From contig LCJG01000002.1 of NCBI GenBank assembly GCA_000998025.1, forward strand, positions 891 to 64,890: a DNA stretch of 64,000 nt, written 5' to 3'. Position numbers and translations under genes: made by a program. Each line of letters opens with the position of its first letter. Within the stretch, counting starts at the first letter, position 1. The notes under the pieces were generated by a model. That model saw only the letters and a list, made by a program, of their open reading frames with translations. It searched no databases and had not been told where the DNA came from. Of the stretch, positions 34,413 through 64,000 are shown one piece after another. This stretch comes from Candidatus Collierbacteria bacterium GW2011_GWB1_44_6 (GTDB taxonomy: Bacteria > Patescibacteriota > Microgenomatia > UBA1400 > MFAQ01).

Positions 34413-34413
34413 T

Positions 34414-40725: not shown

Positions 40726-41541
40726 TTATTTGTATTTTAACTTGAGTTTTGGATCGTCCTGCCACAGGTCGGAGCCTCCATCATCGTAATACCGGAGAAT
40801 GTATGTTCTATAAAGGATAGCTAAATAGTCAATGGCAAAATTCTGGACTGATGACATGTCGACATTGCTTGAAAAATTGTGGGTAATTTCCACCGGAGAT
40901 TCAAATATTCTCTTAAAACCCAAGTGGTTGGCCACTGTCAGTATTTCCAGATCAAAAGCCCAACGTTTCACAATAAGCCGCGGCAAGACTTTAACGAGAA
41001 CTTCTCTCTTAAAGACCTTTAACCCAGTCTGAGTATCCGAAACATTTAAACCAAAGAAAAACCTGGTAGCTCTCTGAACAAAAAAAGAGAGAATTTTTCT
41101 CTGCCAAGGATACTCTACTTTACTTGCGTGATGGCGTTTACTTCCGATGATTACGTCTGCGTCGTACCATTTCATATGTTCCAAAGCCAACCCAAGCCCT
41201 TTGGCGTGGAGATCTGAACCGGCATCAATAAAGGCGATAACTCCTCCCCTTGCCCTAGCCATACCAAAACGGATAGCGTAACCCTTACCCCGGTTATCCG
41301 GATAAAAATATATTTTTATGTCTGCAGACTTTGCTTTGATGGCTTTTTCGCGGGTGTGGTCTTTTGATGTTTTTCTACCATCTACAATGCAAATGATTTC
41401 GTATGGGCGGTTTAAGAGATCAAGATATAGTTTTATAGTAAAAAGATCTTTGTCGATAGTTTTACAGTTATACGCAGGAACGATTACAGAGAGAAGAGAT
41501 GGGTCGGCTTTTAGGATTTTATTTTTGGCCACTTTGGGCAT
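40726..41541 (-). CDS. GT2 family glycosyltransferase
   Basis: LLSVIVPAYNCKT...IICIVDGRKTSKD...IAFIDAGSD. Confidence 0.75.
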   Translation of the reverse strand: MPKVAKNKILKADPSLLSVIVPAYNCKTIDKDLFTIKLYLDLLNRPYEIICIVDGRKTSKDHTREKAIKAKSADIKIYFYPDNRGKGYAIRFGMARARGGVIAFIDAGSDLHAKGLGLALEHMKWYDADVIIGSKRHHASKVEYPWQRKILSFFVQRATRFFFGLNVSDTQTGLKVFKREVLVKVLPRLIVKRWAFDLEILTVANHLGFKRIFESPVEITHNFSSNVDMSSVQNFAIDYLAILYRTYILRYYDDGGSDLWQDDPKLKLKYK

Positions 41542-46521: not shown

Positions 46522-46620
46522 TGGTAAGGATGATTATAACAACTAAAAAAACTCAAAAACTCGAAAATTCAAAACGGTGGACTTGTTGATTTCGGGTATT
46601 GTTTGGTGTTAAATGGATAT

Positions 46621-46956: not shown

Positions 46957-46987
46957 CAAAATATATCTTTTAAGGTATATTTTACCC

Positions 46988-48412: not shown

Positions 48413-49653
48413 GGATGTCTATTCGAATTATACAGTTTTGGAGGATAATAGGAACCAGATTGAACAAAAAAGTGTTGATATTTTCTTTGTTTGTAGGAAT
48501 TTTACTAAGTGCGTTTGATGCATTTCTCTCTTATGTGTTTACCGATAGTGCTCTCTTGGCTCTGATCGGTCAAAGCAAATCCGGTGTATCGAAGGCCGTA
48601 ACGCACCTGCAAAGCAGTTTCCCACGAGAAATGGTCAACCAGACAGGACTGGCACTGATAGCTGTCATTGCCGCTATTCAAGTGATGCTGACTTTTTCAA
48701 AAAAAATAATAGGGCGAAGAGAACTGTTTTTGGCGACAATCATTCCCTCACTCCTGGTTTTTGCTTATCCGATGGTCAGTCGGGATATTTTCAGTTATTT
48801 GTATTATGCCAAGATGGTTTTGGTTCACCATCAGAATCCGTATTTGATAGTACCTTTGGTCAACAGCAGTACCGATCTGTGGCTGGGGTTTGTCCACAAT
48901 GTTGACCGGGTGTACGCATATGGGCCAACGGCGCTGATAATTTCGATAGTCCCTATGCTGATAGCCGGAGGAGAAAAATTACTCGTAAATATATTTTTTG
49001 TTAAACTCGTGAGTTTGACTTTTTTTCTTTTGGGGTCTTGGCTTTTTCTGAAGATTAGCAAGAACAGAAATTTGGTAGTTGTTCTTTGGATACTTAACCC
49101 TTTCATTATCAATGAAATGCTAGTCAATGGACACAATGACTTGTTTATGATTGTTTTTTTCTGGCTGGCAATATATTGGAAACAGAACTCAAAAACAACT
49201 TTGTCGGTCTTGGCTTATCTATTGTCTGTGGGAACCAAATATCTGACGGCGCCCTTGCTGCCGATTCTATTCTTATCCAAAAAATGGCAGACCATACTGT
49301 CTACTCTGTCGATAGTGGTAATAGCGGGATATTTGATTTTACACGGTAACTTACCCTGGTATTACAGCTGGATTTATTTTTGTCTACCTTATCTGAAACT
49401 AAACAAAGGACAGGTTACATCCATTCTGTTTTTACAAATTACATTGCTACTTGGATATGCCGGATTTTTGGAAACCGGTATGTGGGGACCTCCACCCAGT
49501 AGTAATGTAATAATTTTGCTTTCCAAGTCTGTGTGGATGTTTTTGCCTCTATTTATATTCTTCGTCTTTGTAGATCTCCCAAAGCTTCATGTAGGAGAAA
49601 GCATGGTGAAGACCGGAATAAAGGGAAAAAACAAAACCAGGAAAACCATCTAG
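48403..49653 (+). CDS. polytopic membrane protein (possible GT-C / DUF2029-like)
   Basis: 416 aa with at least 10 TM helices. Its C-terminal 105 nt overlap the convergent GT2 gene. Confidence 0.35.
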   Translation: MISWMSIRIIQFWRIIGTRLNKKVLIFSLFVGILLSAFDAFLSYVFTDSALLALIGQSKSGVSKAVTHLQSSFPREMVNQTGLALIAVIAAIQVMLTFSKKIIGRRELFLATIIPSLLVFAYPMVSRDIFSYLYYAKMVLVHHQNPYLIVPLVNSSTDLWLGFVHNVDRVYAYGPTALIISIVPMLIAGGEKLLVNIFFVKLVSLTFFLLGSWLFLKISKNRNLVVVLWILNPFIINEMLVNGHNDLFMIVFFWLAIYWKQNSKTTLSVLAYLLSVGTKYLTAPLLPILFLSKKWQTILSTLSIVVIAGYLILHGNLPWYYSWIYFCLPYLKLNKGQVTSILFLQITLLLGYAGFLETGMWGPPPSSNVIILLSKSVWMFLPLFIFFVFVDLPKLHVGESMVKTGIKGKNKTRKTI

Positions 49654-50424
49654 GAAGCCACGATAGCGGAAGTACAAGCTCAGAAAAGTACCTAGGGGTT
49701 TGAAAAATAAATAATTTAAGGTATTAAAGAGGTTCACTTTGACACCAGCATCTTTGAGCTGGTGGGCATGGAGGCTAGAGTAAGAATTTTCTCTGAGTAA
49801 ATATCGGGAAAAATTTGGCGTAGCAAGGTGGTCTAGATCAGACATGAGCCAACCAGTGACACCCTTGACTATCATTTGTTCGTGAACATCCTTGGCAGGA
49901 AGTCTGGCTTTACCTCTTTGGAATAGGCGGATGACCGGATCGGGGTATTGGCCGGCGTTCTCGAGATATCTATTCAGGAAGAAATTTTTTCTAGGTAGGT
50001 AGTATGCGGAGGCCGGGGATCTGAGCAATTGTGGCTCAGAAAAAATCTTTATTATTTTATTTATTGAGGATTTGAGGGGAGAAATCCAACTGTCATAACC
50101 GAAATATGATCCCTCCAAGATGCCGAGTATTTCTTTGACCATTTCTTTGGTCACTCTTTCGTCCGCGTCCATTTGCAGAATCCAATCTGATTTGGCCGAT
50201 CGATTGGCAATATCTTTTTGAACATGGAAAACAGGATTATTTGGCCGCAGTATAACTTTGACCCCCAGCTTTTTGGCGATCTCAGCAGTATTGTCCGTGG
50301 AGTAGCCATCAACGACGACAATCTCATCGGCAAAATCCTTGACCGATTCCAGACAGGCGGCAATATTCGCCTCTTCATTATATGTAGCGAGAGTGACAGA
50401 AATGGTTTGGCGTTTTGTTTTCAT
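49549..50424 (-). CDS. GT2 family glycosyltransferase
   Basis: ISVTLATYNEEANIAACLESVKDFADEIVVVDGYSTDNT. Confidence 0.8.
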   Translation of the reverse strand: MKTKRQTISVTLATYNEEANIAACLESVKDFADEIVVVDGYSTDNTAEIAKKLGVKVILRPNNPVFHVQKDIANRSAKSDWILQMDADERVTKEMVKEILGILEGSYFGYDSWISPLKSSINKIIKIFSEPQLLRSPASAYYLPRKNFFLNRYLENAGQYPDPVIRLFQRGKARLPAKDVHEQMIVKGVTGWLMSDLDHLATPNFSRYLLRENSYSSLHAHQLKDAGVKVNLFNTLNYLFFKPLGTFLSLYFRYRGFLDGFPGFVFSLYSGLHHAFSYMKLWEIYKDEEYK

Positions 50425-52232
50425 TTTTTGATGGTTGAGATTGCTTCGTCGACTTCGTCTCCTCGCAATGGCGGAGGGGAGGTGGAGATAAATTTGAACA
50501 TGGTGCCTCCGGAAGGAGATTTTACTGTACCGATGACGTTGTTGTCATCTACTTTCTCTTCGGCGGTTATCAGGAGGGTATTCGGAAGCAACTTGTCCTG
50601 TTCATAATTGATAGTCCGGAATTCATACTTGCCTAGTTTGCGGCCGGTGGCAAAGCCAAAGTGGTCGGGGGAAGACATAACAATATCTCTTTGCAGATCC
50701 GCCGGCGGATACTGGGTAAAGAAAGCGATCAGAATATATGGCTGGTCGTAGCGGTCGGTAACGATAATGTGATCGTATTTGTCGTAATTATCTTTGGTGT
50801 AAACGGCGATTTGATCGAAGCCATACTGCCAAGCATACGGAAGCTCTTTGGGATAGTGGACGTAATACATATGTAGATAACGGGAAAAGTCGTAAGAGAT
50901 AAATAAGGTTGCGATGGCTAGGAAAATGGGAAGTAGTTTGGGAAGGTGACTTTTGATGAACACAAAAAACTCAACAAGACCAAGAGCGGAAATAATCATC
51001 AGTGGGACAGCCATATTTGCTGCTCTTAGGGCGTGAGGGGACTGGAAGGTAATTGAGGCGGCCAGGGGTGCAATGAGGAACCAAGCGAAAATTAGTTTCT
51101 TGCCAGAAGAATCCAACTTTATCAAAGAAATAAATCCTAGAACGAAGACGGGCAGAAGGACCAGTATACTTTGACCGGTTTCCGGCACCTTGCTTCTGGC
51201 TATGGCGTCACCATTGAGAAAAAGGAAATCGGGAGAGTAGTGCGACAAATAGTTTTCGATAAATCTGAGCGAATATGAAAGGTAGCGGTTGTGAATAAGC
51301 CTGACCGGAAGAGTATCTTTATCGGTGTGCTGGAGCCGGTAATTGGTGGCCTGCCACTCCGGCCCGGTGTCGGCAAAAATGGAGACACCTGAAAAACGCG
51401 ACTGGCCTTCTTTGGAGAGAAGTTGGGTGGCAATTGGAAGGGAAAGAAGGAGGCCGAGGAGACAGGAGAAGAAAAAGGTTCTGGTGGTTGTTGGAGTGAG
51501 ATCCCTCCACTTCGGTCGGGATGACGATAAAGCAGGAATGACAACAGTACCTGAGAATAGATCTTTCCAGTAGATAATGACCAAGGATAAAGAAAGTAGA
51601 GGCGAGATGACTCTGGCGGAATGATAGGTATAGAGACTGAGAGCGAGTGAAGTGACAAAGAGAAAGAAATAGTTTGCCTGCCTCCCGGCAGGTAAAGTTT
51701 TTTCAATCCCTTTCAAAAAACCCCAGACCCCAAGAAGCATGAAAAAAGTGGCGGCGTTTACTTCCCAACCACCCCGGGAGAAGTGAAGATGCCAGGGGGA
51801 AATGGCGAGGAGGAGGGCGGAGATATGAGGAAAGTATTTATATGTTGTAGTTACTGGATGGATTCCCGCCTTCGCGGGAATGACAGCAGTGACGGGGGGG
51901 AATAATAGTTTGACGATTAGGTAGATGAGGAGGACGCTGGCGACTCCCAATATGGCGGAGGGGAGACGGACGGCCGTGACGGTGAGGCCGAGGAATTTGA
52001 CGAAGGGCAGAACCAGATAGAAATAGACGGGGGGTTTGTAATCGTCAAAGGAACGGAAGACCTGAGGCCAGGCGACAGAGTGTTCGTCTTTGCCCGTCTC
52101 AATAAGACTCCAAGCATTGTAGCCGATCGCCGCTTCATCAGCATTGAGACCAGCGGGAAAACTGCTCAGAAAAGGCAGTCTGAGTAAGGCTGCTAAGATG
52201 ACAATGGCGATGATGAAAAAATGTTTTTTCAC
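50421..52232 (-). CDS. GT-C glycosyltransferase, GT39/PMT_2 family (ArnT/Pmt-like) paralog 1 of a tandem array
   Basis: LLRLPFLSSFPAGLNADEAAIGYNAWSLIETGKDEHS...AVRLPSAILG is the canonical PMT_2/ArnT N-terminus. 603 aa. Confidence 0.8.
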   Translation of the reverse strand: MKKHFFIIAIVILAALLRLPFLSSFPAGLNADEAAIGYNAWSLIETGKDEHSVAWPQVFRSFDDYKPPVYFYLVLPFVKFLGLTVTAVRLPSAILGVASVLLIYLIVKLLFPPVTAVIPAKAGIHPVTTTYKYFPHISALLLAISPWHLHFSRGGWEVNAATFFMLLGVWGFLKGIEKTLPAGRQANYFFLFVTSLALSLYTYHSARVISPLLSLSLVIIYWKDLFSGTVVIPALSSSRPKWRDLTPTTTRTFFFSCLLGLLLSLPIATQLLSKEGQSRFSGVSIFADTGPEWQATNYRLQHTDKDTLPVRLIHNRYLSYSLRFIENYLSHYSPDFLFLNGDAIARSKVPETGQSILVLLPVFVLGFISLIKLDSSGKKLIFAWFLIAPLAASITFQSPHALRAANMAVPLMIISALGLVEFFVFIKSHLPKLLPIFLAIATLFISYDFSRYLHMYYVHYPKELPYAWQYGFDQIAVYTKDNYDKYDHIIVTDRYDQPYILIAFFTQYPPADLQRDIVMSSPDHFGFATGRKLGKYEFRTINYEQDKLLPNTLLITAEEKVDDNNVIGTVKSPSGGTMFKFISTSPPPLRGDEVDEAISTIKK

Positions 52233-53872
52233 TGAGCTTTGGTTTTGATGATTCTTAAAGCAACTTCCCCATTGGGATATAAAACGTCCATGTGTTTATC
52301 AATGGTGGGTAGAGAAAAATCGAAGTCCTCGGGAAAGTTCCCAATAGTACCCACAAAAATAGTATCCGGCTGGGTTTGTACTTCGGAAAGCCCTGACTGG
52401 TGGAACTCTACCCGGCCAACATTAGCAACCTTGCCGACGTCTAGCCCCCCCGACTGGAACTCATTAATTTTTTGATAAGTGGCGGGGTCAAAGCGGGAAT
52501 AAAAAAGATAGAAGATGTATGGCTGGCCAAAGACGTCGGTAATGACCGCTTTGCTTTCCGGGTACTCACTGACAAACTGAATCGCCTCTTTGAAGCCATA
52601 TTGGAATTCTCTGGCGTAAGTAAAATTTGTATGGACAAATAATAGATCAAGAAAATAAACGAAGAAGACTAGGGTGGCGAGAAGATTAATAAAGAAGAAC
52701 AGCTTAATTTTGCTAAAAGCGTAAAACGCCCCTAAACCACAAATTATGGCTAAGGGAATGGTCAAGAAAAAGGCCCTGACGGTGGAGTACTCTGACAAAG
52801 TAAGTGAGCCAGTAATGGGTGCGAGTAACAGTAGCCCGGCTATGAGCAGTGAATTCTTTTGATGAGAAAATTTTATAAGAAAGACTAACCCAAGCAAGAA
52901 CCATACTATATCAAAAGGCAGAAGCATGCCCATGCCCGGAATGTGACCTCGTTCGACGATATCGGTGCCTTCGAAGAAGAGCAAATTGGGACTGAGATGC
53001 TTGAGATAGCGGCTGGCGACAAGACGTGAAGTGAGCTGGAACTGGTTGTGAAATAAATTTAGACTGACCGGATTATTCTCGTCGATGTTTTTTATTTCCT
53101 GACTAATTCCCGGACGGTAACCAAAGATGCTGAGACGTTTTAACCGATTTCCCGCTTCTCCGGAAGCAGTTGACAGGTAAAATGCCAAAAAGAAGGCCAT
53201 CGAAAAAGCAAGAAGCGCTCTATTGAATTTGACTGAGGTGTATTGTTTGAAGTTTGTAGAAAAGTCTGACCAAAAAAGTATGACCGGAAGTAAGAGAACT
53301 AAGGGGGTAAGAAGCTTGGCGGCCTGATAAGTCAGAAAAGTAAGCAAGGCCAGGACAATGGACCAACCGAGGTACTTACCCGAGTGAATAAAGCGAATCA
53401 GAAAATATAAAGAGAAAAGTAACAGAGTGGCGAAGATATTGGTTTCCCAGGCTCCCCGGCTGAAATGAATATGCCAGGGCATAAGGGCTAGAGAGAGGGC
53501 ACAAAAAGACGCCAAGAGAGTCTTGTTTTTGTTTTCTCTAACAATTTCAGAGACCAATAAGAAGACACCGTAGATGGCTAAGATACCAGCCAAAGCGCTG
53601 GGGAGACGGGTGGCGAACTCGGAGAGACCCAGAATGGCGATGGGAGGAATGGCTAAATAGACATAAAGTCCGGGTTTGTAATCACCGAAGCTTTTAAAAA
53701 CAATGGGCAGGAACTTTCCGAATTCATCCCGGCCGGTTTTTATAATGGAAAAAGCGTTGTAACCCAAAGCAGCTTCGTCCCAGGTGAGAGCGTTGGGTAG
53801 TGAACCCAGCTGATAAAGTCTGAGGAGAGAACCGATAACTATGGCAAAGATTAATAACCAATATTTTTTCAT
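52229..53872 (-). CDS. GT39/PMT_2-family glycosyltransferase paralog 2
   Basis: LLRLYQLGSLPNALTWDEAALGYNAFSIIKTGRDEFG...ATRLPSALAG. Confidence 0.8.
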   Translation of the reverse strand: MKKYWLLIFAIVIGSLLRLYQLGSLPNALTWDEAALGYNAFSIIKTGRDEFGKFLPIVFKSFGDYKPGLYVYLAIPPIAILGLSEFATRLPSALAGILAIYGVFLLVSEIVRENKNKTLLASFCALSLALMPWHIHFSRGAWETNIFATLLLFSLYFLIRFIHSGKYLGWSIVLALLTFLTYQAAKLLTPLVLLLPVILFWSDFSTNFKQYTSVKFNRALLAFSMAFFLAFYLSTASGEAGNRLKRLSIFGYRPGISQEIKNIDENNPVSLNLFHNQFQLTSRLVASRYLKHLSPNLLFFEGTDIVERGHIPGMGMLLPFDIVWFLLGLVFLIKFSHQKNSLLIAGLLLLAPITGSLTLSEYSTVRAFFLTIPLAIICGLGAFYAFSKIKLFFFINLLATLVFFVYFLDLLFVHTNFTYAREFQYGFKEAIQFVSEYPESKAVITDVFGQPYIFYLFYSRFDPATYQKINEFQSGGLDVGKVANVGRVEFHQSGLSEVQTQPDTIFVGTIGNFPEDFDFSLPTIDKHMDVLYPNGEVALRIIKTKAQ

Positions 53873-55554
53873 GGAAGTTCGATTATTTTGAAGGCGACAG
53901 ATCCGTCCAAGAAATTAATAGTCTTGAGAACATTAGCACCGGCAGGGATGCGGTCAGGGGAGGCGACCAAGAGGCTCTTGGAAGTGGGCATTATGTCACC
54001 GCTTTCGAGAGTGAGAGAAGTAAATTGTTCCACGGGAATTTGCCAGTCATTTACGAAGTAATAGTCACCTACCTTATCGGTCCAGAACCAGTCCGACTTC
54101 CCAAAACGGATATTATCACCTCCGGGCTGAAGCACTTGAGGATGAATCCGGTTATAAAATGCGTAAAAAATGTGTGGTTCTCCATAAAACTTGGAAATGA
54201 AGAACTTCGGATATTGTTTTTGAGTATTCAAAAAATCTAAAACTTCCCGGTAACCATATTGCCAAGATTTTGAGTAGCTCTTGGCGTAAGTCACGAAATA
54301 ATCATTTGCATAGATGGCAAAGTTGCCAATAGTGAGAAGGAAAATAACTGCAGTCAAAATTTTTCCGGTGGTGGCAGATAGCTTGGTCTGCAAGAACAGT
54401 AGTCCCAAGCCGCCGATAATTACCATGGCAGGGATCATGGGATTTGGACGTAGGGCCTGAGGGGGATCGACAGTAAGAGCTGAAGCGATAGGGGAGAGCA
54501 GAAACCAGGAAAGGATCAGTTGGTGGGATTTTTCACCCGGGTTTTTAATAATGAAAAATAGACCGGCGATAAACAAAACCATGACAGGAAAACCTAAAAG
54601 ATTTCTACCGGGAATGGCAAACTGGAACTGAGCTCCCCTACTCTGATTAAAAAAGTCAGTGGTGAAATAGCCAAAATAATTATTGATAAATGTTTGAACA
54701 AAATAGACAGGGCGATTGTAGACAAATTTGGCGACAAGAGGTGGTAAGCCGCTCTCGATTCTTTTCTGGCCAAGGGTATAGGCCGTCGATTCCGTGATGA
54801 TATTAAGTTTGCCATAGCGGGCAGTACCCGTGCCGGCAAAAATTTGATAAGCGACAATAGAGGCGAAGGCTCCGAGAATAAAAATAGAAAATAAAAGAGT
54901 GCGGGTGATTTTTATTTTTTTCCAATAAATGACGATGAAAGCTAGGAGAAGGACCGGGACAAAGACCCTGGCAGTATTGTAGGTATGCAGTGACAAACCA
55001 AAAAGAAAGGCAGACGGAATAAATAATACAGATTTTTTTAGACCGGTGAGTAAAAAATAGGTAGCGAAAATAATCAGAGTCAGTGCGAGATTGGCTTCTA
55101 GCGCCGGGCGGGAAATAAAGAAATGCCAAGGAAGAAGAGCAAGGAAGAAGGCTGAGAGTAATGGGAGATTTAGAAAATGCTTCTGTTTGGGCAAAAAATT
55201 CGCAATGACAGATGAGGAAAAGAGTTCACGAGTGAGGAGGAAGATACCGGGGATGGCAAGAGTGCCGGCCAAGGCGGAAATGAAACGGAGAGAGAAGGTG
55301 GTGAGACCAAAAAGCCAAACAGGGATTACAGAGAGATAGATATATAAGGGAAGTTTGTAATCTCCAAAAGCACGGAAGATCAAAGGGAATTTGACTCCCC
55401 ATTCGTCTTTGCCGGTCAGCAAAATGGAGTAGGCGTTGTAACCATGACTGATCTCGTCCCAGTTGGGAGAGACGGGAAATTTGTCCAGTAGAAAAAATCT
55501 CAGGAAGCCACCAAAAAGAGTGATTAGCAGTATATAAAGTAGAGTTTTTTTCAT
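53869..55554 (-). CDS. GT39/PMT_2-family glycosyltransferase paralog 3
   Basis: FLRFFLLDKFPVSPNWDEISHGYNAYSILLTGKDEWG...SLRFISALAG. Confidence 0.8.
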   Translation of the reverse strand: MKKTLLYILLITLFGGFLRFFLLDKFPVSPNWDEISHGYNAYSILLTGKDEWGVKFPLIFRAFGDYKLPLYIYLSVIPVWLFGLTTFSLRFISALAGTLAIPGIFLLTRELFSSSVIANFLPKQKHFLNLPLLSAFFLALLPWHFFISRPALEANLALTLIIFATYFLLTGLKKSVLFIPSAFLFGLSLHTYNTARVFVPVLLLAFIVIYWKKIKITRTLLFSIFILGAFASIVAYQIFAGTGTARYGKLNIITESTAYTLGQKRIESGLPPLVAKFVYNRPVYFVQTFINNYFGYFTTDFFNQSRGAQFQFAIPGRNLLGFPVMVLFIAGLFFIIKNPGEKSHQLILSWFLLSPIASALTVDPPQALRPNPMIPAMVIIGGLGLLFLQTKLSATTGKILTAVIFLLTIGNFAIYANDYFVTYAKSYSKSWQYGYREVLDFLNTQKQYPKFFISKFYGEPHIFYAFYNRIHPQVLQPGGDNIRFGKSDWFWTDKVGDYYFVNDWQIPVEQFTSLTLESGDIMPTSKSLLVASPDRIPAGANVLKTINFLDGSVAFKIIELP

Positions 55555-57263
55555 TTCTTAAAATCGAAGACTTCCATTATTATCTCACCAGTAGGCGTTA
55601 GAACCTGATAGATTGTATGCCTATCGGTAGGTAAGGGGGCAATTTTTTGGGCAATATACAAAGTGTGTTCGTTCCTATCTTCCTGCCAGTCTAGAGTCTC
55701 AAAAATGTACTTGTCGCCGAGTCGGTAATGGTCCATCTGGTCCAGATAAGAGATGGGCCTTTTCTTTATCTTTATGTCCCAGGTTTGGGTAGCTAACTGA
55801 AACTGTTCAGGGGGAGTATGCTGATAAAAAGCGACATAGACCTGAGACTGGGTGCCCTTTTCAACTAGGACGGCTTGATAATTTCCCTCTATTTCCGAGA
55901 CTACCTTCATGGCATCTCTCCATCCATATGAAATTGCTTTGGGAAAAGTCACTCTAGAATTAAAATAATAGTCTTCCAGATAAAAAATAGTCAAAACTAG
56001 AGCGAAGATAATAAAGGTTGTCAAAATTAATTTGCGGAATTTAAATTTTATTTCGAGAAGGTTTACAGCTCCAAAGGCAGCGATAATTTCCCAGACAACC
56101 AAAAAGGAACCGGCCCTATTTGGACGATAACCTTCTTTGGTAAGGGCGGCGGGGATGGCTGCCAATAGGAGCCAGAGAATTAGTGGACGGGCGTCAAAAT
56201 CTTGGTTGTCTTTCTTCCGTATTAATAAAAATAAACCGTACAATACCAAGGGAAGCATCCAAAAGTATAAAAGTCCCCTTCCGGGAATAACTGAATAAGT
56301 GATTTCCCTACCTCCCTCTGTGAACCAAAAGGGTAGTGAGAAATAACTGAGATAGTTTTCGGCAAACTGAGAAGTGACTGTAAATATTTTCCGGTGAAAG
56401 AGCCTGGGGATTTTGGGGTGAACTTTGGAGAGAGGCGAGTAAAAGGACTGGTCATCTATCTGTTTGAGATTGACAGTGTCCAGGTTGGTAATCAGGAGAT
56501 CCCCTCCCCTTTTGGCCGAGTTTCCGAATACCATATCTAATCCGAGTGGGCTGATCAGAATAACGACGAGCATGATGGAGGGAATGAGGGGACGGAGCCC
56601 TCGATCAAAAATTTGTTTTCGATAGATATAAACCATGGAAATGGCGAAAAGCGGGACAAAAACTTTGGTGGAGTGATAGGCGTAGAGACTAAAGCCCCAA
56701 AGGAGACTGGCGTAGACAAACTGGCGGTGGTCCCTCAGACCTTGCAAAAAGAAGTAGAGGCCAAGGGGAAAAAGAAAGGAGGTGAGGTTTACTTCCAGAG
56801 CAGTCCGGGAAAATTGGATATGCCAAGGGGAGAGGGCGAGGAAGAGAGCGGCGTAAAGCGGAAGGTTATTGAATGGATTCCCGATCAGGTCGGGAATGAC
56901 ACGTTTTTTGGAAACGTGTGGGATTCGGGGGAAAAGTTCGGAGGCAAGGAGAAAGACGGCAAGGATGGCTAGAGTACCAAAAATGGCGCTGGGAAGACGG
57001 GCGGCAAATTCATTGAGCCCAAAAAGTGCAATGCTTGGCATCATCAAATACGTTTGAAGAGGGGCTTTGTAATCCAAGAAGGACTTGAAAGAAACAATCG
57101 GCCAGGCAATTCCCCACTCATCTTTTCCTGTTTGAAGGAGACTGTAGGCGGTGTAGGCTTGGCTGGCTTCGTCGGGAGAGAAACCTGCAGGAATTGAACC
57201 TAGAAAGATTAAGCGGATCGATAGTCCGAGAAGAAGGATCAAAGCCAGAAGTTTTAACTTCAT
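55551..57263 (-). CDS. GT39/PMT_2-family glycosyltransferase paralog 4
   Basis: SIRLIFLGSIPAGFSPDEASQAYTAYSLLQTGKDEWG...AARLPSAIFG. Confidence 0.8.
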   Translation of the reverse strand: MKLKLLALILLLGLSIRLIFLGSIPAGFSPDEASQAYTAYSLLQTGKDEWGIAWPIVSFKSFLDYKAPLQTYLMMPSIALFGLNEFAARLPSAIFGTLAILAVFLLASELFPRIPHVSKKRVIPDLIGNPFNNLPLYAALFLALSPWHIQFSRTALEVNLTSFLFPLGLYFFLQGLRDHRQFVYASLLWGFSLYAYHSTKVFVPLFAISMVYIYRKQIFDRGLRPLIPSIMLVVILISPLGLDMVFGNSAKRGGDLLITNLDTVNLKQIDDQSFYSPLSKVHPKIPRLFHRKIFTVTSQFAENYLSYFSLPFWFTEGGREITYSVIPGRGLLYFWMLPLVLYGLFLLIRKKDNQDFDARPLILWLLLAAIPAALTKEGYRPNRAGSFLVVWEIIAAFGAVNLLEIKFKFRKLILTTFIIFALVLTIFYLEDYYFNSRVTFPKAISYGWRDAMKVVSEIEGNYQAVLVEKGTQSQVYVAFYQHTPPEQFQLATQTWDIKIKKRPISYLDQMDHYRLGDKYIFETLDWQEDRNEHTLYIAQKIAPLPTDRHTIYQVLTPTGEIIMEVFDFKK

Positions 57264-57309
57264 GAGTATATTATACTAATCTCCGGTGTGACAATGTTAA
57301 ACTTGAGTC

Positions 57310-57798
57310 ATGGAACTGAGTTGGGAGGAGACCAGAAAATTTATATCTAAATATCTGTTGATATATTTTGGTTTGGCCCTCGTTTTATTTTTTGTCTTGC
57401 GGTGGTATAAGACCGCAAATTTTTCTCAGGATACTCTGGAAACGATGTTGACGACCGTCTCGGTCTTAAGAGATAAAACTGATGATCCTTGTAAGTATGC
57501 TATTCTCGGGGAGCCGACGACGGCACAGGCAAACTATGTCAAGGTCAATATATATTGCGGTAGAACAAAATCTTTGAATTCAATGGACCTGCGGGCTATC
57601 AAAGAAAAAACGGTGGGTGGTGCATTGACAGAACTGGCCAGAATAAATGGCTATACCGGAAACCGCAACAACTGGATATGCAAATTAAACAGAAAGCCTT
57701 TCGTGAGCTTTGAGGAGAAATTGGAATCGAAGGCGACGGTTGATTGTTTCCTGGGACTTTCCGAAAAAGAAATCGCCAAATATTATGAAACTATTTAA
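57310..57798 (+). CDS. hypothetical single-pass membrane protein with a 4-Cys extracytoplasmic domain
   Basis: TM helix LLIYFGLALVLFFVL, then a soluble domain with C61, C83, C124 and C146. Confidence 0.35.
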   Translation: MELSWEETRKFISKYLLIYFGLALVLFFVLRWYKTANFSQDTLETMLTTVSVLRDKTDDPCKYAILGEPTTAQANYVKVNIYCGRTKSLNSMDLRAIKEKTVGGALTELARINGYTGNRNNWICKLNRKPFVSFEEKLESKATVDCFLGLSEKEIAKYYETI

Positions 57799-59200
57799 AC
57801 GGATAGCTTTACCTGTATTGGCCGTTATCTTGATTATGGCTCTGGGCTATAAACTGAGACTTTCGGGATTCAATAGCATCCCCTTCCCCGGTGAATCACT
57901 GGATGAATATAGCAACGCCTGGGTGGGGCTAAGTATGATCCGGCTCGGGGTGCCGGTGGGGATGTCAGGACTTCCGGGGTACCCTGTCCAAGATAGTCGA
58001 TATATTAATGTTGACAGAGTTTTCCAAACAACAGCAAACGGCAATACCATGCAGATGAGTTACCCTTGGTTTGACCACCCTCCAATGATGGGACTAATAA
58101 CCGGTGGCTTTAGCTACTTCAAGGGGGCGAGAGTGTTCGAAGACACGACTGCCGTGACAATCAGAAAACCGGTGATTTTGATGTCGACCCTCACCATTGG
58201 ACTTGCTGCTTATTTAGCGTATCTACTTTTTGGTTGGGAAACGGCGATCGCTGCTGCCACGATAATCGCCACTTCTCCCCTGATGGTAATAAATAGCCGC
58301 ATGGTACAAGCGGAGAATGGCTTAACCCCTTTGTTTTTGCTGTCTTTGATCTTACTCTGGTGGTATGAGAAAAAAGGAGGTTACACTTTTCTCACACTGC
58401 TCTCGATGACAATAGGTCTGGCAATGCTTTTTAAGCTTTCGGCTGTCGCCCTACTCTTCTGTGCTCTGGCACTTATTTTTGCCAATGTCAAGAAAAATTC
58501 TGCGACCAGATGGCAGGAGGGCTTGATAGTTTCGGTAATTGCCTTATCCGTCTTCGGAATATTTGTAATATCGGCTTTAGCTTGGGACTTCTCCACCTTC
58601 GTTAAAGTATTTTTGGCAAATTCTGGTAGAGCATACGGCATCGGGCTAAGTGCTCTTTTTGATCTGATTACCAATACGAAAATTACAGCGGTAAAATTCC
58701 TGACTGATGGCTGGCCTCTCACAGGATGGCTGGGACTTGCCATATTGACCAGGATGGATCTGAGGAACAAGGCTTGGTATCTTTGGCTACCGATCTTCTC
58801 GTATTTGGCCGTTTATTTGTTCTTTGGCAGTGAGCCTTTTGGCTGGTACCGGATTCCATTTTTGCCGTTTTTACTAATCGTCTCGGGATGGCTGACCACC
58901 GCCTTTATACGGAATATGCATCTTACAGCAGTCTCGGTCGTGACCCTTCTGATTCCACTCGGTATCAATCTGGAAAAATATTTTGACGTACACAAATTGA
59001 TTTGGCTTATTCCGGCGTGGAGGCTCAGCTGCTTGGCCTTAATCATAGGTGCTTTATCCCTACTTATGACCGACCAAGCAAATCCGAAAGTAAAATGGGC
59101 TGTCTACGCAACCATGTTTGTTCTTTTTTCTCTGGTCATATATTCGAATATACTTCGTGCAGGTATGTTTACCGTGGACTACTGGTATAAAGTAAACTAG
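57785..59200 (+). CDS. GT-C membrane glycosyltransferase (ArnT/PMT-like)
   Basis: MKLFKRIALPVLAVILIMALGYKLRLSGFNSIPFPGESLDEYSNAWVGLSMIRLG... has the family N-terminus with the DE motif. I prefer the ATG at 57785 over the upstream alternative start codon at 57710. Confidence 0.55.
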   Translation: MKLFKRIALPVLAVILIMALGYKLRLSGFNSIPFPGESLDEYSNAWVGLSMIRLGVPVGMSGLPGYPVQDSRYINVDRVFQTTANGNTMQMSYPWFDHPPMMGLITGGFSYFKGARVFEDTTAVTIRKPVILMSTLTIGLAAYLAYLLFGWETAIAAATIIATSPLMVINSRMVQAENGLTPLFLLSLILLWWYEKKGGYTFLTLLSMTIGLAMLFKLSAVALLFCALALIFANVKKNSATRWQEGLIVSVIALSVFGIFVISALAWDFSTFVKVFLANSGRAYGIGLSALFDLITNTKITAVKFLTDGWPLTGWLGLAILTRMDLRNKAWYLWLPIFSYLAVYLFFGSEPFGWYRIPFLPFLLIVSGWLTTAFIRNMHLTAVSVVTLLIPLGINLEKYFDVHKLIWLIPAWRLSCLALIIGALSLLMTDQANPKVKWAVYATMFVLFSLVIYSNILRAGMFTVDYWYKVN

Positions 59201-60858
59201 TTTTTCGGAGGTAAAGTACCCGACATCAGGTAGAACAGGGGCTGGCCAAAAATGTTTTTTTGAGAAGCGAGAACAGTCGTGTTGTCCAGCGGATTTTTGC
59301 TCCAGTCCCAATCGCCTTGGCCTTCTCTACCCTGCACTGCCAGATAAACCATTCGGTCATTCATCAATAGTTTTAGTTCATCCAAATTGGGAGCTTCCCC
59401 AAAAAAGTATTTTTGGTCAAAGACAAATCCATGGAAAGAATTGGTTTGATAAGTGTCGACTTTGTCGGTTACAAAGTTTTTTTGAAAATCTTGTGGGGGG
59501 TACTGAGTATAGAAAAGAAAGAGCAGCAAAGAAGGTTGGTAAGTATTGTTGATATAGACTTTGTCGAAATTTGGTGCCAGTGCCTTTAGATCGGTAAAGA
59601 TATTTTTGAAACCATAGTGCCACAGTGACGCTGACTCATATTTGTAATGAGAAGAATAACGATGCCAGAAGCTAGTGAAAAAAAGTCCCAGAAAAACAAT
59701 AAACAGAATAATTGTTGGTCGGATAAATTTTTTACCAAATAGACTAAATAGATAGGTACCCCCTAGGGCGGAAATTAAGATAAGTGGAGGGACCATGAGG
59801 AAGAGTCTGGTGGCATGGGTGCCTCCGCCTGTGGTGAGACAGCTTGGGATGGGAGAAAGTAATAACCAGAAAAGGAGTAGTTTTGAGTTTTTCTGTGAAA
59901 AATTCTTGAAAATAAAATAGAGTCCGGCAAGGAACAGGGGCAGTGTGGGCAACAGTAGCTCCCCTACTTTGGAGATGGAGTGGCGGAAAAATGGGTCTCC
60001 GTTCACAAATAAGAATTGGGGTGAAAATGAGGTCAAGTAATTATCAAAAAATGCGGTCGCTATGGCCAAATATTTGTTGTGAAACAACACCTCAAAGAAA
60101 GTCTTTTGGACCCATGGATCAGTTCTTTGAAGAATAACAGATTCAATAAGCTTGAGGTCGCTAAAGATGCTTATCAAACCAAACCTGCCACCAGCCTGGC
60201 CGAAGAAAATATTGTAAACAATAGGGAGAGCGAGAAGTGAAGGCAAAAAGAGACGAGGCCAGTTTTTCCCGAGGGATAATTTTGGCCTTTCGATAAGGAG
60301 AAGGGCGAGAACAAATAACGGTGTAAAGACTACCGCGGTTGAGTAAGCATAAAAAGTGAGAAAGAAAGGGATGAGGCTGGCGAAATATTTGCCTTTTAAA
60401 AAAAGATACGTGCCCAGCATGGTAAGAAAAGTCAAAGGAACTACCTCGAAGGCAGCCCGGGAAAAGTGAATGTGCCAAGGAGTGATGGCCAGAAGTAAAG
60501 TGGATATCAGGGCGGTCGTTTTGTTCTTGAACAGAGTATTCCCCAGTAGATATATCAAGTAGATACTGAGTGAGCCGATGAGAGCAACCGGCAGCCGGAT
60601 AGCCAGGTCGGTGGTGCCAAACAGACCGACGAAAGGAGCGGTGAGATACATGAGTAGTGGCGCGCGCCACTCAGCCAGGCTTTGGATATAAGTAGGTAGA
60701 AGGTGCCCCATGTAGTCCCGTCCAGTGGATATAAGTGACCAGGCTTGGTAACCAACATCAATTTCGTCCCCAAAGAGGGCAATCGGCAAAGAAGTTAGCT
60801 GAGTAAACCGGAAGAAAGTGCCTAGAGCTATGATGAGGACGAGAAATACTTCGATCAT
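59197..60858 (-). CDS. GT39/PMT_2-family glycosyltransferase paralog
   Basis: FFRFTQLTSLPIALFGDEIDVGYQAWSLISTGRDYMG...AIRLPVALIG. Confidence 0.8.
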   Translation of the reverse strand: MIEVFLVLIIALGTFFRFTQLTSLPIALFGDEIDVGYQAWSLISTGRDYMGHLLPTYIQSLAEWRAPLLMYLTAPFVGLFGTTDLAIRLPVALIGSLSIYLIYLLGNTLFKNKTTALISTLLLAITPWHIHFSRAAFEVVPLTFLTMLGTYLFLKGKYFASLIPFFLTFYAYSTAVVFTPLFVLALLLIERPKLSLGKNWPRLFLPSLLALPIVYNIFFGQAGGRFGLISIFSDLKLIESVILQRTDPWVQKTFFEVLFHNKYLAIATAFFDNYLTSFSPQFLFVNGDPFFRHSISKVGELLLPTLPLFLAGLYFIFKNFSQKNSKLLLFWLLLSPIPSCLTTGGGTHATRLFLMVPPLILISALGGTYLFSLFGKKFIRPTIILFIVFLGLFFTSFWHRYSSHYKYESASLWHYGFKNIFTDLKALAPNFDKVYINNTYQPSLLLFLFYTQYPPQDFQKNFVTDKVDTYQTNSFHGFVFDQKYFFGEAPNLDELKLLMNDRMVYLAVQGREGQGDWDWSKNPLDNTTVLASQKNIFGQPLFYLMSGTLPPKN

Positions 60859-62354
60859 AGATCAATTATATTCTCCTCTTCATTCAGGAAAAAATAATAA
60901 CCGTGAATTGAATTGCCGATGGTTTTCATTTTGGGTTGGTGCTCCAACTTGGCCATGAGGATACTGCCAACCGGAAGAGAGTCTCCCGGCTGCCACCGCA
61001 GTATGACTTGATCAAAATAAGCTGCTTCCAAAAAATTACCGGTTTCCCCGTCTGCCTTTCTGGAACTGACTTCGATGTATGGGGTCAATGAATTTTTTGC
61101 TGACACTTGAGAGAGGTACTTGTAAGCATCTTCCACGGAGTTGGCAGGTAAAAAGTGTTCCGAAACAAATTTGGGATAGGTATACCAGTAGTAGTTGACA
61201 AAATCAAAATAATTAATGGCAAACATAATAATCGTAGATACAATTAGTACACCATGGAGGAGCTTATTCCTTATTTCCCAGAGTGAAAGGAGACCTAGGG
61301 TAGTGATGGCTACGAAGGGCGGAATAAATGCCATTAGACGGGAGGCGCGATGAACACTGTTTACAAAACCAAAAAGTAAAGGTGTTGCCAGAAAAACGGC
61401 AATGAAAAATGTCCAAAAGCCTCTTTTTTGGACGGCTCGATATAATCCAATGAGAAAAAAAGGTAAGGTTGAAAGCAATAGCATGCCGTGGACACCAGTG
61501 GAGTGATAGACGGTCTCGTCTCCTCTGATAAACAAGAAGGAAGGATCAAAACTAGAGAGATATGGATAGAGAAAATCGTAAACCGAGGTCCACTTAAAAC
61601 CCTGGGAATTAAAAACAGCCCCGGGATATTTTTGTTCTAATAAAGGAATTATGGCAAAAAAGGGTAGTACTCCTAGACAAAAGAAAAGCGTTCTTTTGAA
61701 GAATATCTGAAGGTCTTTTTTGGTATACCGGCCGTGAAGTCCGCGGAACAAGTAGACAGTTGTCAATAGACACCAAATCGGAACTGTCGCTCTCATGGCT
61801 TTGTAGGTGTAGAAATTTATTCCCAAGGAGATGCCAGCCAGGACCAAGTACTTGAGACTCTTGGTCTTGGAGAAGTACCAGAGAAATATCAGCCAGAGTA
61901 GAGTGAAAGGTACCGGAAAAATATTGTCGAGGGCCATATGAGTCTGGATCATGACGAGAGGAGTGGTTAAGAAGACTAAAGAGCCAATAAGACCAGCTTT
62001 TTTGTCCAAGACTTTTGATAACCAAAAATACGTTAAATAGGCACTTGTCAGTAAAACTGCTACTGTGGAAAGTCGAAGCGAGAGAAGTGAAGGACTGAAG
62101 AGTTTGAAGATAGCAGTGAGATAGTACTGGGAGACAGGCTGTCTCCAATCCCCACCATTTATGGAGAGGACAAAAACCGGCATGAAACGGCCATTCTGAT
62201 CATGGGCAGTTTCTGCCAGCAGGACAGCGTTGTAGCCAAAGGCGGCTTCATCAACCGTAATGCCAGGAGGGGTTTCCAAAATCCTGTAGGAAAAGAATAG
62301 GCCGGTGATAAATAGAGCCAAGACAACTAAAATTACGGAAAGGTATTTATTCAT
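60855..62354 (-). CDS. GT39/PMT_2-family glycosyltransferase paralog (divergent)
   Basis: YRILETPPGITVDEAAFGYNAVLLAETAHDQNGRF...SLRLSTVAVL. Confidence 0.7.
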   Translation of the reverse strand: MNKYLSVILVVLALFITGLFFSYRILETPPGITVDEAAFGYNAVLLAETAHDQNGRFMPVFVLSINGGDWRQPVSQYYLTAIFKLFSPSLLSLRLSTVAVLLTSAYLTYFWLSKVLDKKAGLIGSLVFLTTPLVMIQTHMALDNIFPVPFTLLWLIFLWYFSKTKSLKYLVLAGISLGINFYTYKAMRATVPIWCLLTTVYLFRGLHGRYTKKDLQIFFKRTLFFCLGVLPFFAIIPLLEQKYPGAVFNSQGFKWTSVYDFLYPYLSSFDPSFLFIRGDETVYHSTGVHGMLLLSTLPFFLIGLYRAVQKRGFWTFFIAVFLATPLLFGFVNSVHRASRLMAFIPPFVAITTLGLLSLWEIRNKLLHGVLIVSTIIMFAINYFDFVNYYWYTYPKFVSEHFLPANSVEDAYKYLSQVSAKNSLTPYIEVSSRKADGETGNFLEAAYFDQVILRWQPGDSLPVGSILMAKLEHQPKMKTIGNSIHGYYFFLNEEENIIDL

Positions 62355-63494
62355 TTAAATAAAGGGGATTTTTAATGTAAGAAACAGATTTAGAAAGTGA
62401 TAAGTGCTTAGGGTAAAGTAACTGAGCCACCAATAAGGATTGGCGGAAAAAGACAAAAGCCCAAAGACCAGAGCAGGTGCGAGATGTCTCTCGTGCACGC
62501 GAGTCTGGAGAAAGAAAACAGCTAGAGACCATAAGAAGAGAGCCATGAAGAAATTTTTCTTTGAATACTTATTCCTCAGATAAATTAAAGTAATTAAAAG
62601 AATTGTAATTAGCAGAGCGATTGAGATTTGCCGGATGGTAAATATCCCTAGCCTGACAGAATCGGAAGTGGGTGTCGGATAGAAAAACCACCAGAAGTTG
62701 TAAGCGGCGTCCGAGACATAATCGGACGAACCCGACAAAGTAGAGAGATAGTTGGCCGCCGCAGACAAAGGATTTAAACCGAAAGGTAAATAACTAAATA
62801 CAAAAAGAGTCAAACTTGAAATAATTCCCTCAAGCCAGTCTTTGGGATTCAATTCTTTGTACCAGAGAAATATATAAAAAGGAGTGAACCACAAAGCGGT
62901 CTGTTTGGTGAGAGCAGCGAAGGCAAAAAAGAAGATTGAAAGATAGAAATGTTTCCTCTGAGCAAAATACGCGCAATATAGGGAAACGATTAAGAAGAAG
63001 GTGGTAAGAGACTCTATCTGCCCCCAGACCGAGCTGACATAGAGAATGGCCGGATTAAAGAGAAACAAGATGGTTATTAGAAGAGGTTTCCGATATTTGA
63101 GTTTTTGAAATATCTTCAAAAGAAAGATACCTATTCCCAAATCGGCAAAAATTGCGGGCAGTTTCATGAAACCCAGCTGCATGTTTTCATGTTCAAAAAG
63201 TGGGACAAAAAATGAGGGGAAGACAGGAAGCAAATGGTTGAGGTAGGAAAATAAAGAAGTAACGCTTAGATAAATAAAGCGAGAAATGGCGAAAAAATAG
63301 ATCGTTAATGAGGGATAATTAGCATCGTTGAAACCCGGAAAGTGCCGGGAATAAAAACCAACAGGGTACTGTAAAAAACTATTGGCCCAAACTAAATGGT
63401 TTTTGACATCACCGGAGTACTGTGGAAAAAGAAATATCAGTCTTAGAAGCAAGGCGGCAAAGAATATAAAGAATACAGGCTTAAGCTTTTTCAT
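62355..63494 (-). CDS. polytopic membrane protein, GT-C-like
   Basis: LLLRLIFLFPQYSGDVKNHLVWANSF... Multi-TM, 379 aa. Confidence 0.4.
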   Translation of the reverse strand: MKKLKPVFFIFFAALLLRLIFLFPQYSGDVKNHLVWANSFLQYPVGFYSRHFPGFNDANYPSLTIYFFAISRFIYLSVTSLFSYLNHLLPVFPSFFVPLFEHENMQLGFMKLPAIFADLGIGIFLLKIFQKLKYRKPLLITILFLFNPAILYVSSVWGQIESLTTFFLIVSLYCAYFAQRKHFYLSIFFFAFAALTKQTALWFTPFYIFLWYKELNPKDWLEGIISSLTLFVFSYLPFGLNPLSAAANYLSTLSGSSDYVSDAAYNFWWFFYPTPTSDSVRLGIFTIRQISIALLITILLITLIYLRNKYSKKNFFMALFLWSLAVFFLQTRVHERHLAPALVFGLLSFSANPYWWLSYFTLSTYHFLNLFLTLKIPFI

Positions 63495-64000
63495 GATCGC
63501 TCACGAACCTGATAAAACAAGCTATTAGACCGGCGCGAGACAGCTGAACAAGCTCTTTGAAGTAAGCCGAGGAAATAAGAGGGGGTGACAAAGAGAGTTT
63601 TGAGTGAGTGAATATTTGCATATGGAGAGTGGCGTCAAATGAAAAGAGAACTCCAAACCAAGAAGCGATGATGGCTAGGTATATAAGAGGGTCCGACTTT
63701 TCAATAGAATAAATAACCAACCAGGGCATAACCCAGACTAGCCATTGTGGATGAAAGTGGGAAAAAACAAGGGAAGAAAGCAAGGCTGTCCCGACAGCTT
63801 GAAAGAACGTAAACCGCCTTTGCCAGAGTAAAAGAACTATGAGGGTGTAAGCAATGAAGAAATAAGGGATGTCGTGGCCTGAGGCAATAGAGAATAGGCG
63901 ATGGAACCAAGGTAAGGTAAAACCCCCAGAAGATAGACACCAAGACCTGTTAGTGTCAGCAATAGAGACTCAGTAATTTTTTTGTTTGTAACAAAGTTGT
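63481..64000 (-). CDS. C-terminal part of a further membrane protein gene that runs off the window end; apparent frame break between the two ORF-track fragments
   Basis: Two overlapping hydrophobic minus-strand ORFs (63481-63783 and 63701-63943) lie in different frames, directly upstream of the preceding gene. They look like one membrane-protein gene that is truncated or frameshifted. Confidence 0.3.

Follow-up and report, generated by a model that had tools for sequence, protein, structure and literature searches.

Several described systems build complex glycans on the far side of a membrane with glycosyltransferases (GTs) of the GT-C fold. For lipomannan, lipoarabinomannan (LAM) and arabinogalactan, mycobacteria and corynebacteria possess a set composed of PimE, MptA, MptB, MptC, EmbC-EmbA-EmbB and AftA-D together with Ppm1, and in the lumen of the endoplasmic reticulum (ER) the paralogous GT-Cs ALG3, ALG9, ALG12 and ALG6/8/10, along with DPM1 and ALG5, elongate a lipid-linked oligosaccharide stepwise, each forming a fixed linkage. 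Other GT-Cs include ArnT (GT83), which modifies lipid A and is coupled to ArnC, and the protein O-mannosyltransferases (PMTs) of GT39, exemplified by yeast Pmt1/2/4 and actinobacterial Pmt. Here we describe the observed gene content, GT-C fold, conserved catalytic motif, orthology, and synteny of a tandem array of five GT-C genes, designated A to E, and of a more distant relative, F, in a 64-kb stretch (hereafter the window, 64,000 nucleotides in all) of contig LCJG01000002.1 from Candidatus Collierbacteria bacterium GW2011_GWB1_44_6.

A to E resemble mycobacterial embCAB in being GT-C paralogs arranged in tandem. The mycobacterial set and the window both include GT87 and MptA/B-family genes, and AftA, AftB, AftD, PimE, and EmbA are among the structural matches of the array paralogs. 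The general scheme may be shared as well, with several GT-C families acting in sequence on the outer face, polyprenyl-phosphate sugars provided by a DPM1-like GT2 enzyme, and cytoplasmic priming by GT4 enzymes. Unlike the mycobacterial set, however, the core paralogs belong to the PMT_2/ArnT-like branch rather than to the Emb or Aft families, five to six copies are found in one conserved operon-like array with cytoplasmic partners, and the host, a bacterium of the Candidate Phyla Radiation (CPR), has no mycolata envelope. The proposed likeness to the ALG enzymes is qualified by identities to them of only 12-18%, by the lack of any match to Pfam Glyco_transf_22 (GT22, the family of ALG9, ALG12, PIG-B, and PIG-Z), by the absence of an evident WWDYG oligosaccharyltransferase, and by a bacterial context with a Wzx flippase.

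Conservation of the array across Microgenomatia

The host is a tiny, uncultivated groundwater member of the CPR/Patescibacteria, class Microgenomatia, whose sequence has been public since 2015. Protein A is identical to NCBI UW80_C0007G0019, a hypothetical protein of Microgenomates group bacterium GW2011_GWC1_44_9, and the same locus is present on 11 assembled metagenome contigs. In a collection of species-representative genomes, the closest relatives, at 74% identity, were found in Candidatus Woese- and Collierbacteria, and the next closest in Ames-, Shapiro-, Davies-, and Gottesmanbacteria.

A Pfam scan of 54 open reading frames (ORFs) found nearly all to be glycan-related, and the window is, almost throughout, an island of surface-glycan biosynthesis. 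All eleven ORFs named as GT-C paralogs in the initial annotation were confirmed in position and agree with the gene calls of the public contig, including the 471-aa product of 57785-59200. The density of such genes is striking and had been slightly understated there. When the genes that it missed (45388-46521, PIG-V/PMT_2; 62355-63494, GT87; 48403-49653, MptA_B family) and the weak candidates at 18671-20077 (DUF2079, 17.5 bits) and 63481-64000 (GT87, 16.4 bits) are included, at least 14 GT-C genes are encoded in 64 kb, 14 of them solid and up to 16 in total. A chance origin is not a concern for ORFs of this length, which show significant homology and lie in conserved synteny.

All-against-all BLAST delimited a core subfamily, A to E, with mutual identities of 29-33% over full length (B versus A, C, and E, 30-31%; C versus A, B, D, and E, 29-31.5%). 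F is 25-27% identical to these five, and for the other PMT_2 ORFs similarity to the core is confined to the N-terminal loop region (E 1e-4 to 1e-7). The paralogs had been described as joined by 4-bp ATGA overlaps; the overlaps are real, with ATGA at 50424 (the GT2 gene 49549-50424/E), 53872 (D/C), 55554 (C/B), and 60858, while the E/D junction at 52232 reads GTGA.

A hidden Markov model (HMM) of the six paralogs was searched against the ORFs of 58 related loci, and the family members identified were labelled by their best-matching window paralog. Most of these loci of Microgenomatia metagenome-assembled genomes (MAGs) carry 4-8 members of the same subfamily within ~20 kb; the expansion is a conserved Microgenomatia trait and is not peculiar to this genome, contrary to the earlier suggestion that a tenfold expansion of this kind was unprecedented. 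Within any one genome, the window paralogs have different best orthologs, with identities of 70-75% in Collierbacteria (locus L007) and 31-44% in Ames-, Shapiro-, and Woesebacteria, and ortholog identities across lineages equal or exceed those between paralogs within the window. In Collier-, Woese-, Ames-, Shapiro-, and Daviesbacteria, A to E have one-to-one orthologs arranged as in the window, those of B always directly following A and those of C keeping the same position in the array. The uninterrupted order A-B-C-D-E, on one strand, is found in 15 loci, and six more have the same order with inserted extra copies. Orthologs of F lie upstream of A in L006, L008, L013, L018, and other loci.

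A neighbor-joining (NJ) tree of 103 sequences and 530 columns resolved five ortholog clades, to each of which 15-17 loci contribute roughly one sequence; the exact clade was recovered in 27/30 bootstrap replicates for A, 19/30 for D, and 15/30 for B. Each ortholog group also has its own distinct set of residues conserved at >= 90%. One-to-one orthology and fixed order together imply that the duplications predate the split of these lineages and that every copy was retained. The phylogenetic check proposed in the initial annotation, which was to separate recent duplication from ancient diversification, thus favours the latter, and the sequences indicate that the A-E duplications are ancient and each copy is non-redundant. 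Recent tandem duplication was rejected: the paralogs are 29-33% identical to one another, and orthologs in other candidate phyla are equally or more similar. In the literature, of which our coverage was partial, we came across no account of this array or of an expanded GT-C repertoire in CPR bacteria, which is absence of evidence only. The enzyme class and the sequences are already known; what is apparently undescribed is the lineage-wide, fixed-order five-paralog array with its conserved partners.

Two further polytopic families, both absent from the window, were seen in other Microgenomatia arrays. The first (~510 aa, 9-10 transmembrane (TM) segments, 19 members) lies between B and C in Amesbacteria-type arrays, and the second (~760 aa, 11-13 TM segments, 15 members) lies upstream of the array; examples are L012:14313-15845, L014:14326-15873, L007:3689-5959, and L006:330-2615. 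Among loci L010-L062, many MAGs with a Patescibacteria-type array were deposited as 'uncultured Gammaproteobacteria', 'Pseudomonadales', 'Spirochaetia' or 'Mariniplasma', and these taxonomic labels look like placeholders or errors.

Classification, fold, and catalytic residues

The initial annotation placed the paralogs in GT39/GT83 and proposed an HMM check of that assignment. The gathering score of PMT_2 (PF13231; 26.1 bits) is reached by nine ORFs, namely A, D, F, 2-607, 6197-7570, 21868-23358, 42880-44370, 45388-46521, and 57785-59200. B (26.0 bits) and E (25.6 bits) fall just under it and C has no match, yet A to E are mutually homologous over full length; with B and E counted, PMT_2 matches ten of the eleven ORFs originally named. 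NCBIfam Agl23 (TIGR03663) matches A, B, and E weakly, at 22-35 bits where the cut-off is 126. When two family profiles, A1 and A2, were searched against the PDB, no PMT chain was matched at E values up to 10 and ArnT was matched at E 0.54 only, so that without a meaningful GT-C match in the PDB the classification rests on Pfam and fold. A search for the WWDYG motif in the C-terminal domain together with a Pfam STT3 match likewise gave no assignment to STT3/PglB/AglB (GT66).

Two motifs had been reported as shared by all paralogs. The loop-1 DE directly follows TM1 in ten of the eleven named ORFs, 2-607 having QAD instead, and the R(L/F)(P/I)S-like motif is present in A to F and 21868-23358, occurs as variants in 2-607 (RLTS) and 6197-7570 (RLPF), and is absent from 57785-59200 and 42880-44370. 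D31, E32, and R88, the last belonging to the RLPS-type motif, are invariant in A to F and in an alignment of 79 homologs, and all copies therefore look catalytically competent. Every GT-C family has an acidic DxD, DD or DE motif in the first extracytoplasmic loop, close behind TM1 (PMC6801728), and the DE motif therefore cannot tell GT39 from GT83. Membership in GT39/GT83 is accordingly not upheld, given a non-diagnostic motif and the lack of any match to a solved PMT. Public auto-annotation names homologs 'glycosyltransferase family 39 protein' or 'ArnT-like' (the latter at the Joint Genome Institute, JGI); on sequence grounds, both the 'GT39' and the 'ArnT-like' label lack support for this large family, which comprises 6,075 clusters at 50% identity (E <= 1e-30).

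The polytopic TM core superposes on solved GT-C enzymes, and membership of the A-E-type proteins in the GT-C superfamily (GT-C_A fold) is firmly established; their description as GT-C fold membrane glycosyltransferases of PMT_2/ArnT-PMT type is supported. Structurally, the closest match is the lipid-linked-oligosaccharide mannosyltransferase ALG12 (match value 26.1), with AglB (23.5), ArnT (23.1), STT3B (21.8), and Pmt4 (21.4) close behind, followed by Pmt2 (20.1), PIG-M (18.2), ALG9 (18.1), PglB (18.1), AftA (16.2), PimE (12.2), and EmbA (9.3). The initial annotation had expected paralog-specific C-terminal domains and suggested that their structures be predicted. A to E align over full length, and their C-terminal ~145 residues align mutually as one homologous, diverged alpha/beta domain; taken in isolation, this domain, like the whole protein, is nearest ALG12.

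Partners of the array and its proposed function

Related loci share a cluster order, mostly on one strand, of GT2, GT87-like, (F), A-B-C-D-E, GT2, GT4, and then a PIG-V-like GT-C and/or PpgS-like GT2, a membrane GT2 and/or a Wzx flippase. Its window counterpart spans ~39.6-64 kb of the minus strand, with plus-strand interruptions at 57310-59200, 48403-49653, 46603-47272, and 44451-45398. Homologs of the GT87-like gene 62355-63494 occur in 37 of the 58 loci, usually just before A, and those of the GT2 gene 49549-50424 in 40, directly after E. The PIG-V-like gene 45388-46521 has orthologs in L007 (77%), L009, L041, L045, and L051, orthologs of the membrane GT2 39625-40716 (38-43%) end the cluster in 10 loci, and a Wzx gene follows it in L009, L031, and L045. 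The pair 57310-57798 and 57785-59200, which is conserved in 6-7 loci, stands upstream of the array in other genomes. A HigB-like toxin gene (46603-46956, plus strand; Gp49, 39.5 bits) followed by an XRE/HigA-like helix-turn-helix antitoxin ORF (46988-47272, plus strand) is inserted on the opposite strand between the GT4 and PIG-V-like genes; L007 and L009 lack the pair at this site.

Both types of donor-sugar synthase predicted initially are encoded. Residues 8-289 of the 44451-45398 product match residues 10-293 of ArnC (9hwj) at E 4.6e-36, and GtrB (5ekp) is matched at E 5.6e-31; this full-length similarity, together with a GT-A domain and two C-terminal TM helices (predicted at ~residues 236 and 266), identifies it as a GtrB/ArnC-type enzyme. 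Its NCBIfam scores (ArnC 135 bits, PgfS 126 bits) lie under the equivalog cut-offs and do not give the sugar specificity. The product of 8311-9021, whose TTG start is preceded by an AAGGAG Shine-Dalgarno sequence, matches the Pyrococcus Dol-P-Man synthase (5mlz) over residues 9-216 (E 3.1e-18) and NCBIfam AglJ (105 bits) and PpgS (78 bits), both under equivalog cut-offs, and is of DPM1/Ppm1/AglJ type at the family level only. A weaker third candidate, 40726-41541, matches PpgS (51.8 bits, positions 4-199 of 226) and, in the PDB, GtrB and ArnC (E 3e-5). It has orthologs (46-51%) in 12 loci and follows GT4 in Shapiro- and Woesebacteria loci; by neighbour mapping it is therefore this gene, rather than 44451-45398 or 8311-9021, that is the array-syntenic candidate donor synthase. 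The ArnC/GtrB-like gene and the dolichol-phosphate-mannose synthase (DPMS)-like gene in the window lend contextual support to a putative use of polyprenyl-phosphate-linked donors at the extracytoplasmic face by the array paralogs.

By analogy with ALG3/9/12 or PimE/Mpt/Emb, the A-E array may constitute a stepwise extracytoplasmic glycan assembly line, a reading to which we give about even chances. Cytoplasmic GT2 and GT4 enzymes would start a lipid-linked glycan from nucleotide sugars, a Wzx flippase would carry it across the membrane, and DPM1-like and GtrB/ArnC-like GT2 enzymes would load single sugars onto polyprenyl phosphate. Each GT-C paralog, through its invariant loop-1 Asp-Glu, would then add one such sugar, outside the membrane, at a defined position of the growing glycan, so that the array as a whole would work as an assembly line. 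GT87/PimE-like, PIG-V-like, and MptA/B-like families act on glycolipids or glycans in characterised systems, which favours this reading, as do the donor synthases and the structural match to ALG12 noted above.

The initial annotation had instead read the locus as a multiplied Ppm1/Pmt-type O-mannosylation system of the actinobacterial kind, in which Pmt-like protein O-glycosyl(mannosyl)transferases, fed by Ppm1-like synthases, would each serve different secreted or surface proteins. Such a system would account for the PMT_2 matches in most paralogs, the PF02366 matches, the loop-1 DE motif (a likeness to GT39 PMTs), the DPMS-like GT2 gene, and the resemblance of the E-coupled GT2 to protein glycosyltransferases, and five conserved acceptor classes would also produce 1:1 orthology. 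However, the DE motif is found throughout GT-C families, the family profiles match no solved PMT by sequence, the array proteins lack a MIR domain, and their C-terminal domains are homologous rather than paralog-specific modules. One Pmt serves many substrates in Actinobacteria, so that multiplication is not needed for breadth, which counts against this explanation. The neighbourhood of the array is one of glycan assembly, and the co-conserved GT2/GT4, Wzx, GT87, PIG-V, and MptA/B-like genes suggest that oligosaccharides or glycolipids are assembled; taken together with fixed order and ancient divergence, these partners are better explained by an assembly line than by a multiplied Pmt, and we consider the latter unlikely.

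Each GT-C might alternatively add a single side-branch sugar, in the manner of GtrB/GtrC, ArnC/ArnT or CsbB/YfhO, to a finished wall polysaccharide, teichoic-acid-like polymer or membrane glycolipid, many copies giving combinatorial surface decoration. ArnT is among the top structural matches and is the sole GT-C in the sequence-profile search, though not significantly so, JGI labels homologs ArnT-like, and a full-length ArnC/GtrB-like GT2 gene adjoins the PMT_2 gene 42880-44370, with other peripheral PMT_2 genes likewise beside GT2 genes. Decoration systems are typically variable and often mobile, whereas the content and order of A to E are fixed across deep lineages. Moreover, Pfam and NCBIfam scans of the 54 window ORFs revealed no small flippase of GtrA type, and five to six array GT-Cs face only two to three candidate donor synthases. 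The ArnT/ArnC system itself differs further in having one copy rather than many and in its Ara4N (4-amino-4-deoxy-L-arabinose) pathway, of which no genes occur in the window, and we know of no CPR bacterium that makes lipid A. Decoration is thus an improbable account of the array. It probably does apply to the peripheral PMT_2 genes, each beside a GT2 gene (42880-44370 with the ArnC-like gene; 6197-7570 with 7580-8296 and 8311-9021; 21868-23358 with 21068-21871, which it overlaps), which are probably separate GtrB/GT-C-type decoration modules, and in that respect it complements the assembly-line reading rather than excluding it.

A to E could also form one multi-subunit GT-C complex, as in Pmt1-Pmt2 or EmbA-EmbB, with some subunits catalytic and others serving as scaffold or in acceptor binding. 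Strict co-occurrence, fixed order, and translational coupling by 4-bp overlaps are consistent with such a hetero-oligomer, and GT-C heterodimers are among the structural matches (6p2r, Pmt1-Pmt2; 7bvf, EmbA-EmbB). All paralogs nevertheless retain D-E, R88, and other core residues, and none looks degenerate. We regard a complex of this kind as very unlikely, although it is compatible with an assembly line and not opposed to it.

Several observations weigh against the assembly-line reading. No initiating phosphoglycosyltransferase of the Bac_transf or Glycos_transf_4/WecA type was found among the 54 window ORFs. The nearest solved relatives of the E-coupled GT2, GmaR (E 2e-12) and SunS (E 2e-10), which match its N-terminal nucleotide-binding half only, are protein/peptide glycosyltransferases. 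The fold is near-equally close to AglB/STT3/Pmt4 (protein-modifying), ArnT (lipid A-modifying), and ALG12, and structure therefore does not settle the acceptor class. PF02366 (PMT), the second profile of the proposed HMM check, reaches threshold in A and 2-607, that is, in 2/14 GT-C genes. Exact-clade bootstrap values are poor for C (6/30) and E (1/30), both of which attract divergent sequences, Gottesmanbacteria copies being drawn into the E clade. Gottesmanbacteria arrays (L050, L051, L053) consist of 4-7 tandem copies that are all nearest E and show no A-E resolution, which reflects either independent expansion or a divergence too deep to resolve. In the assembly-line reading we infer the donor type, the sidedness, the stepwise action, and an acceptor that is glycan rather than protein.

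Other genes of the window and implications

Features of the array and its surroundings are listed in Table 1.

Table 1. Positions of GT-C genes, donor synthases, and associated genes in the window
Feature	Position	Strand	Length (aa)	Remarks
GT-C paralog A	59197..60858	-	553	heads conserved A-E array; PMT_2 reached; PF02366 32.9 bits
GT-C paralog B	55551..57263	-	570	PMT_2 26.0 bits; DE 31-32, RLPS 89
GT-C paralog C	53869..55554	-	561	no Pfam match; DE 33-34, RFIS 90
GT-C paralog D	52229..53872	-	547	PMT_2 26.9 bits; ortholog clade 15 loci
GT-C paralog E	50421..52232	-	603	GTG start; PMT_2 25.6 bits; orthologs always end array
GT-C paralog F	60855..62354	-	499	PMT_2 39.2 bits; more distant; without most of C-terminal domain
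GT87-like GT-C	62355..63494	-	379	Pfam GT87 29.1 bits (cut-off 25)
Polytopic gene, weakly GT87-like, 3' part	63481..64000	-	391 on full contig	GT87 16.4 bits, sub-threshold
PMT_2 GT-C	57785..59200	+	471	PMT_2 40.7 bits; between A and B
N-terminally anchored protein	57310..57798	+	162	no Pfam/NCBIfam match; pairs with 57785-59200
MptA/B-family-like GT-C, polytopic	48403..49653	+	416	precomputed PF26314 (public contig), no match in local Pfam copy; ~10 predicted TM
PIG-V/PMT_2-like GT-C	45388..46521	-	377	Mannosyl_trans2 30.1 bits, PMT_2 30.4 bits
PMT_2 GT-C	42880..44370	-	496	PMT_2 31.7 bits; DE 36-37; divergently oriented next to ArnC-like gene
Peripheral PMT_2 GT-C	21868..23358	-	496	PMT_2 30.3 bits, TMEM260-like 21.1 bits; DE 38-39, RLPS 88
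Peripheral PMT_2 GT-C	6197..7570	-	457	PMT_2 27.1 bits; DE 25-26; adjoins GT2 7580-8296 and DPMS-like gene
PMT/PMT_2 GT-C, 5' part, cut at window edge	1..607	-		PMT_2 37.8 bits, PMT 34.3 bits; QAD, not DE
ArnC/GtrB-type polyprenyl-phosphate glycosyltransferase	44451..45398	+	315	2 C-terminal TM segments
DPM1/Ppm1/AglJ-like soluble GT2, candidate polyprenyl-phosphate hexose synthase	8311..9021	+	236	TTG start
PpgS/GtrB-like GT2, candidate polyprenyl-phosphate-sugar synthase	40726..41541	-	271
Soluble GT2	49549..50424	-	291	Glycos_transf_2 77.5 bits; translationally coupled to E
GT4	47393..48412	-	339	Glycos_transf_1 73 bits; after GT2 in 16 loci; 77% identity in L007
GT2 with C-terminal membrane domain	39625..40716	-	363	Glycos_transf_2 52.5 bits; 4 predicted TM
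Wzx-type flippase	41574..42824	-	416	Polysacc_synt_3 31 bits

Across the window as a whole, the ORF scan counted at least eight GT2 and six GT4 genes, two Wzx flippases, and one Wzy_C/O-antigen-ligase-like protein, along with a GDP-mannose 4,6-dehydratase, two epimerase/reductases, and two hexapeptide acyltransferases. A sugar C-methyltransferase (Methyltransf_13/14) is also encoded, as are a B12-binding radical S-adenosylmethionine (SAM) enzyme and seven SAM methyltransferases; these genes lie at 36298-39238 (minus strand), 9010-9738, 15823-16569, 26016-26774, 30693-31502, and 33810-35136. This set suggests that the window glycans carry unusual methylated or branched sugars.

Nearly all window genes are on the minus strand, no tRNA genes were found in the window, and GC skew is ~0.02-0.1 before ~40 kb and 0.15-0.22 after it. 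Between two glycan modules lie a Bro-N domain protein (17763-18602, minus strand) and a Fic/DOC protein (20080-21018, minus strand), types usual in mobile or conflict systems, and between these is the polytopic, weakly DUF2079-like 18671-20077. Three large polytopic ORFs (23376-25490, 26768-28477, and 28369-30576, all minus strand; 704, 569, and 735 aa, with 8-11 predicted TM segments) have no Pfam match and no homolog among the related loci, and hhalign against the GT-C family profile gave probabilities of 0.7%, 0.1%, and 19%, respectively. They lie in a stretch of lower GC content (0.37-0.39 versus 0.41-0.44 elsewhere), which could be a variable sub-cluster or one acquired horizontally, and may encode divergent enzymes of GT-C or polymerase-like type. 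On the opposite strand, 11009-12835 (plus) encodes a 608-aa soluble protein, also with no Pfam match and no homolog among the related loci.

CPR/Patescibacteria genomes are ~1 Mb in size and lack many core pathways. Tentatively, and with some doubt, the array together with its GT87, PIG-V-like, GT2, GT4, and Wzx partners can be viewed as a Microgenomatia-wide counterpart of ER-lumenal ALG or mycobacterial lipoglycan assembly, in which at least five dedicated GT-Cs would build one conserved complex surface glycan or lipoglycan despite an otherwise minimal genome. That several candidate phyla have kept the array in this order implies strong selection, throughout the lineage, on a surface glycan. 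For work on the envelope chemistry of these organisms, the array supplies a gene set, a high-confidence structural model, and invariant catalytic residues. If the proposal is correct, the glycan would be a defining constituent of the envelope in these ultra-small bacteria, which probably depend on hosts, and might serve in attachment to them.

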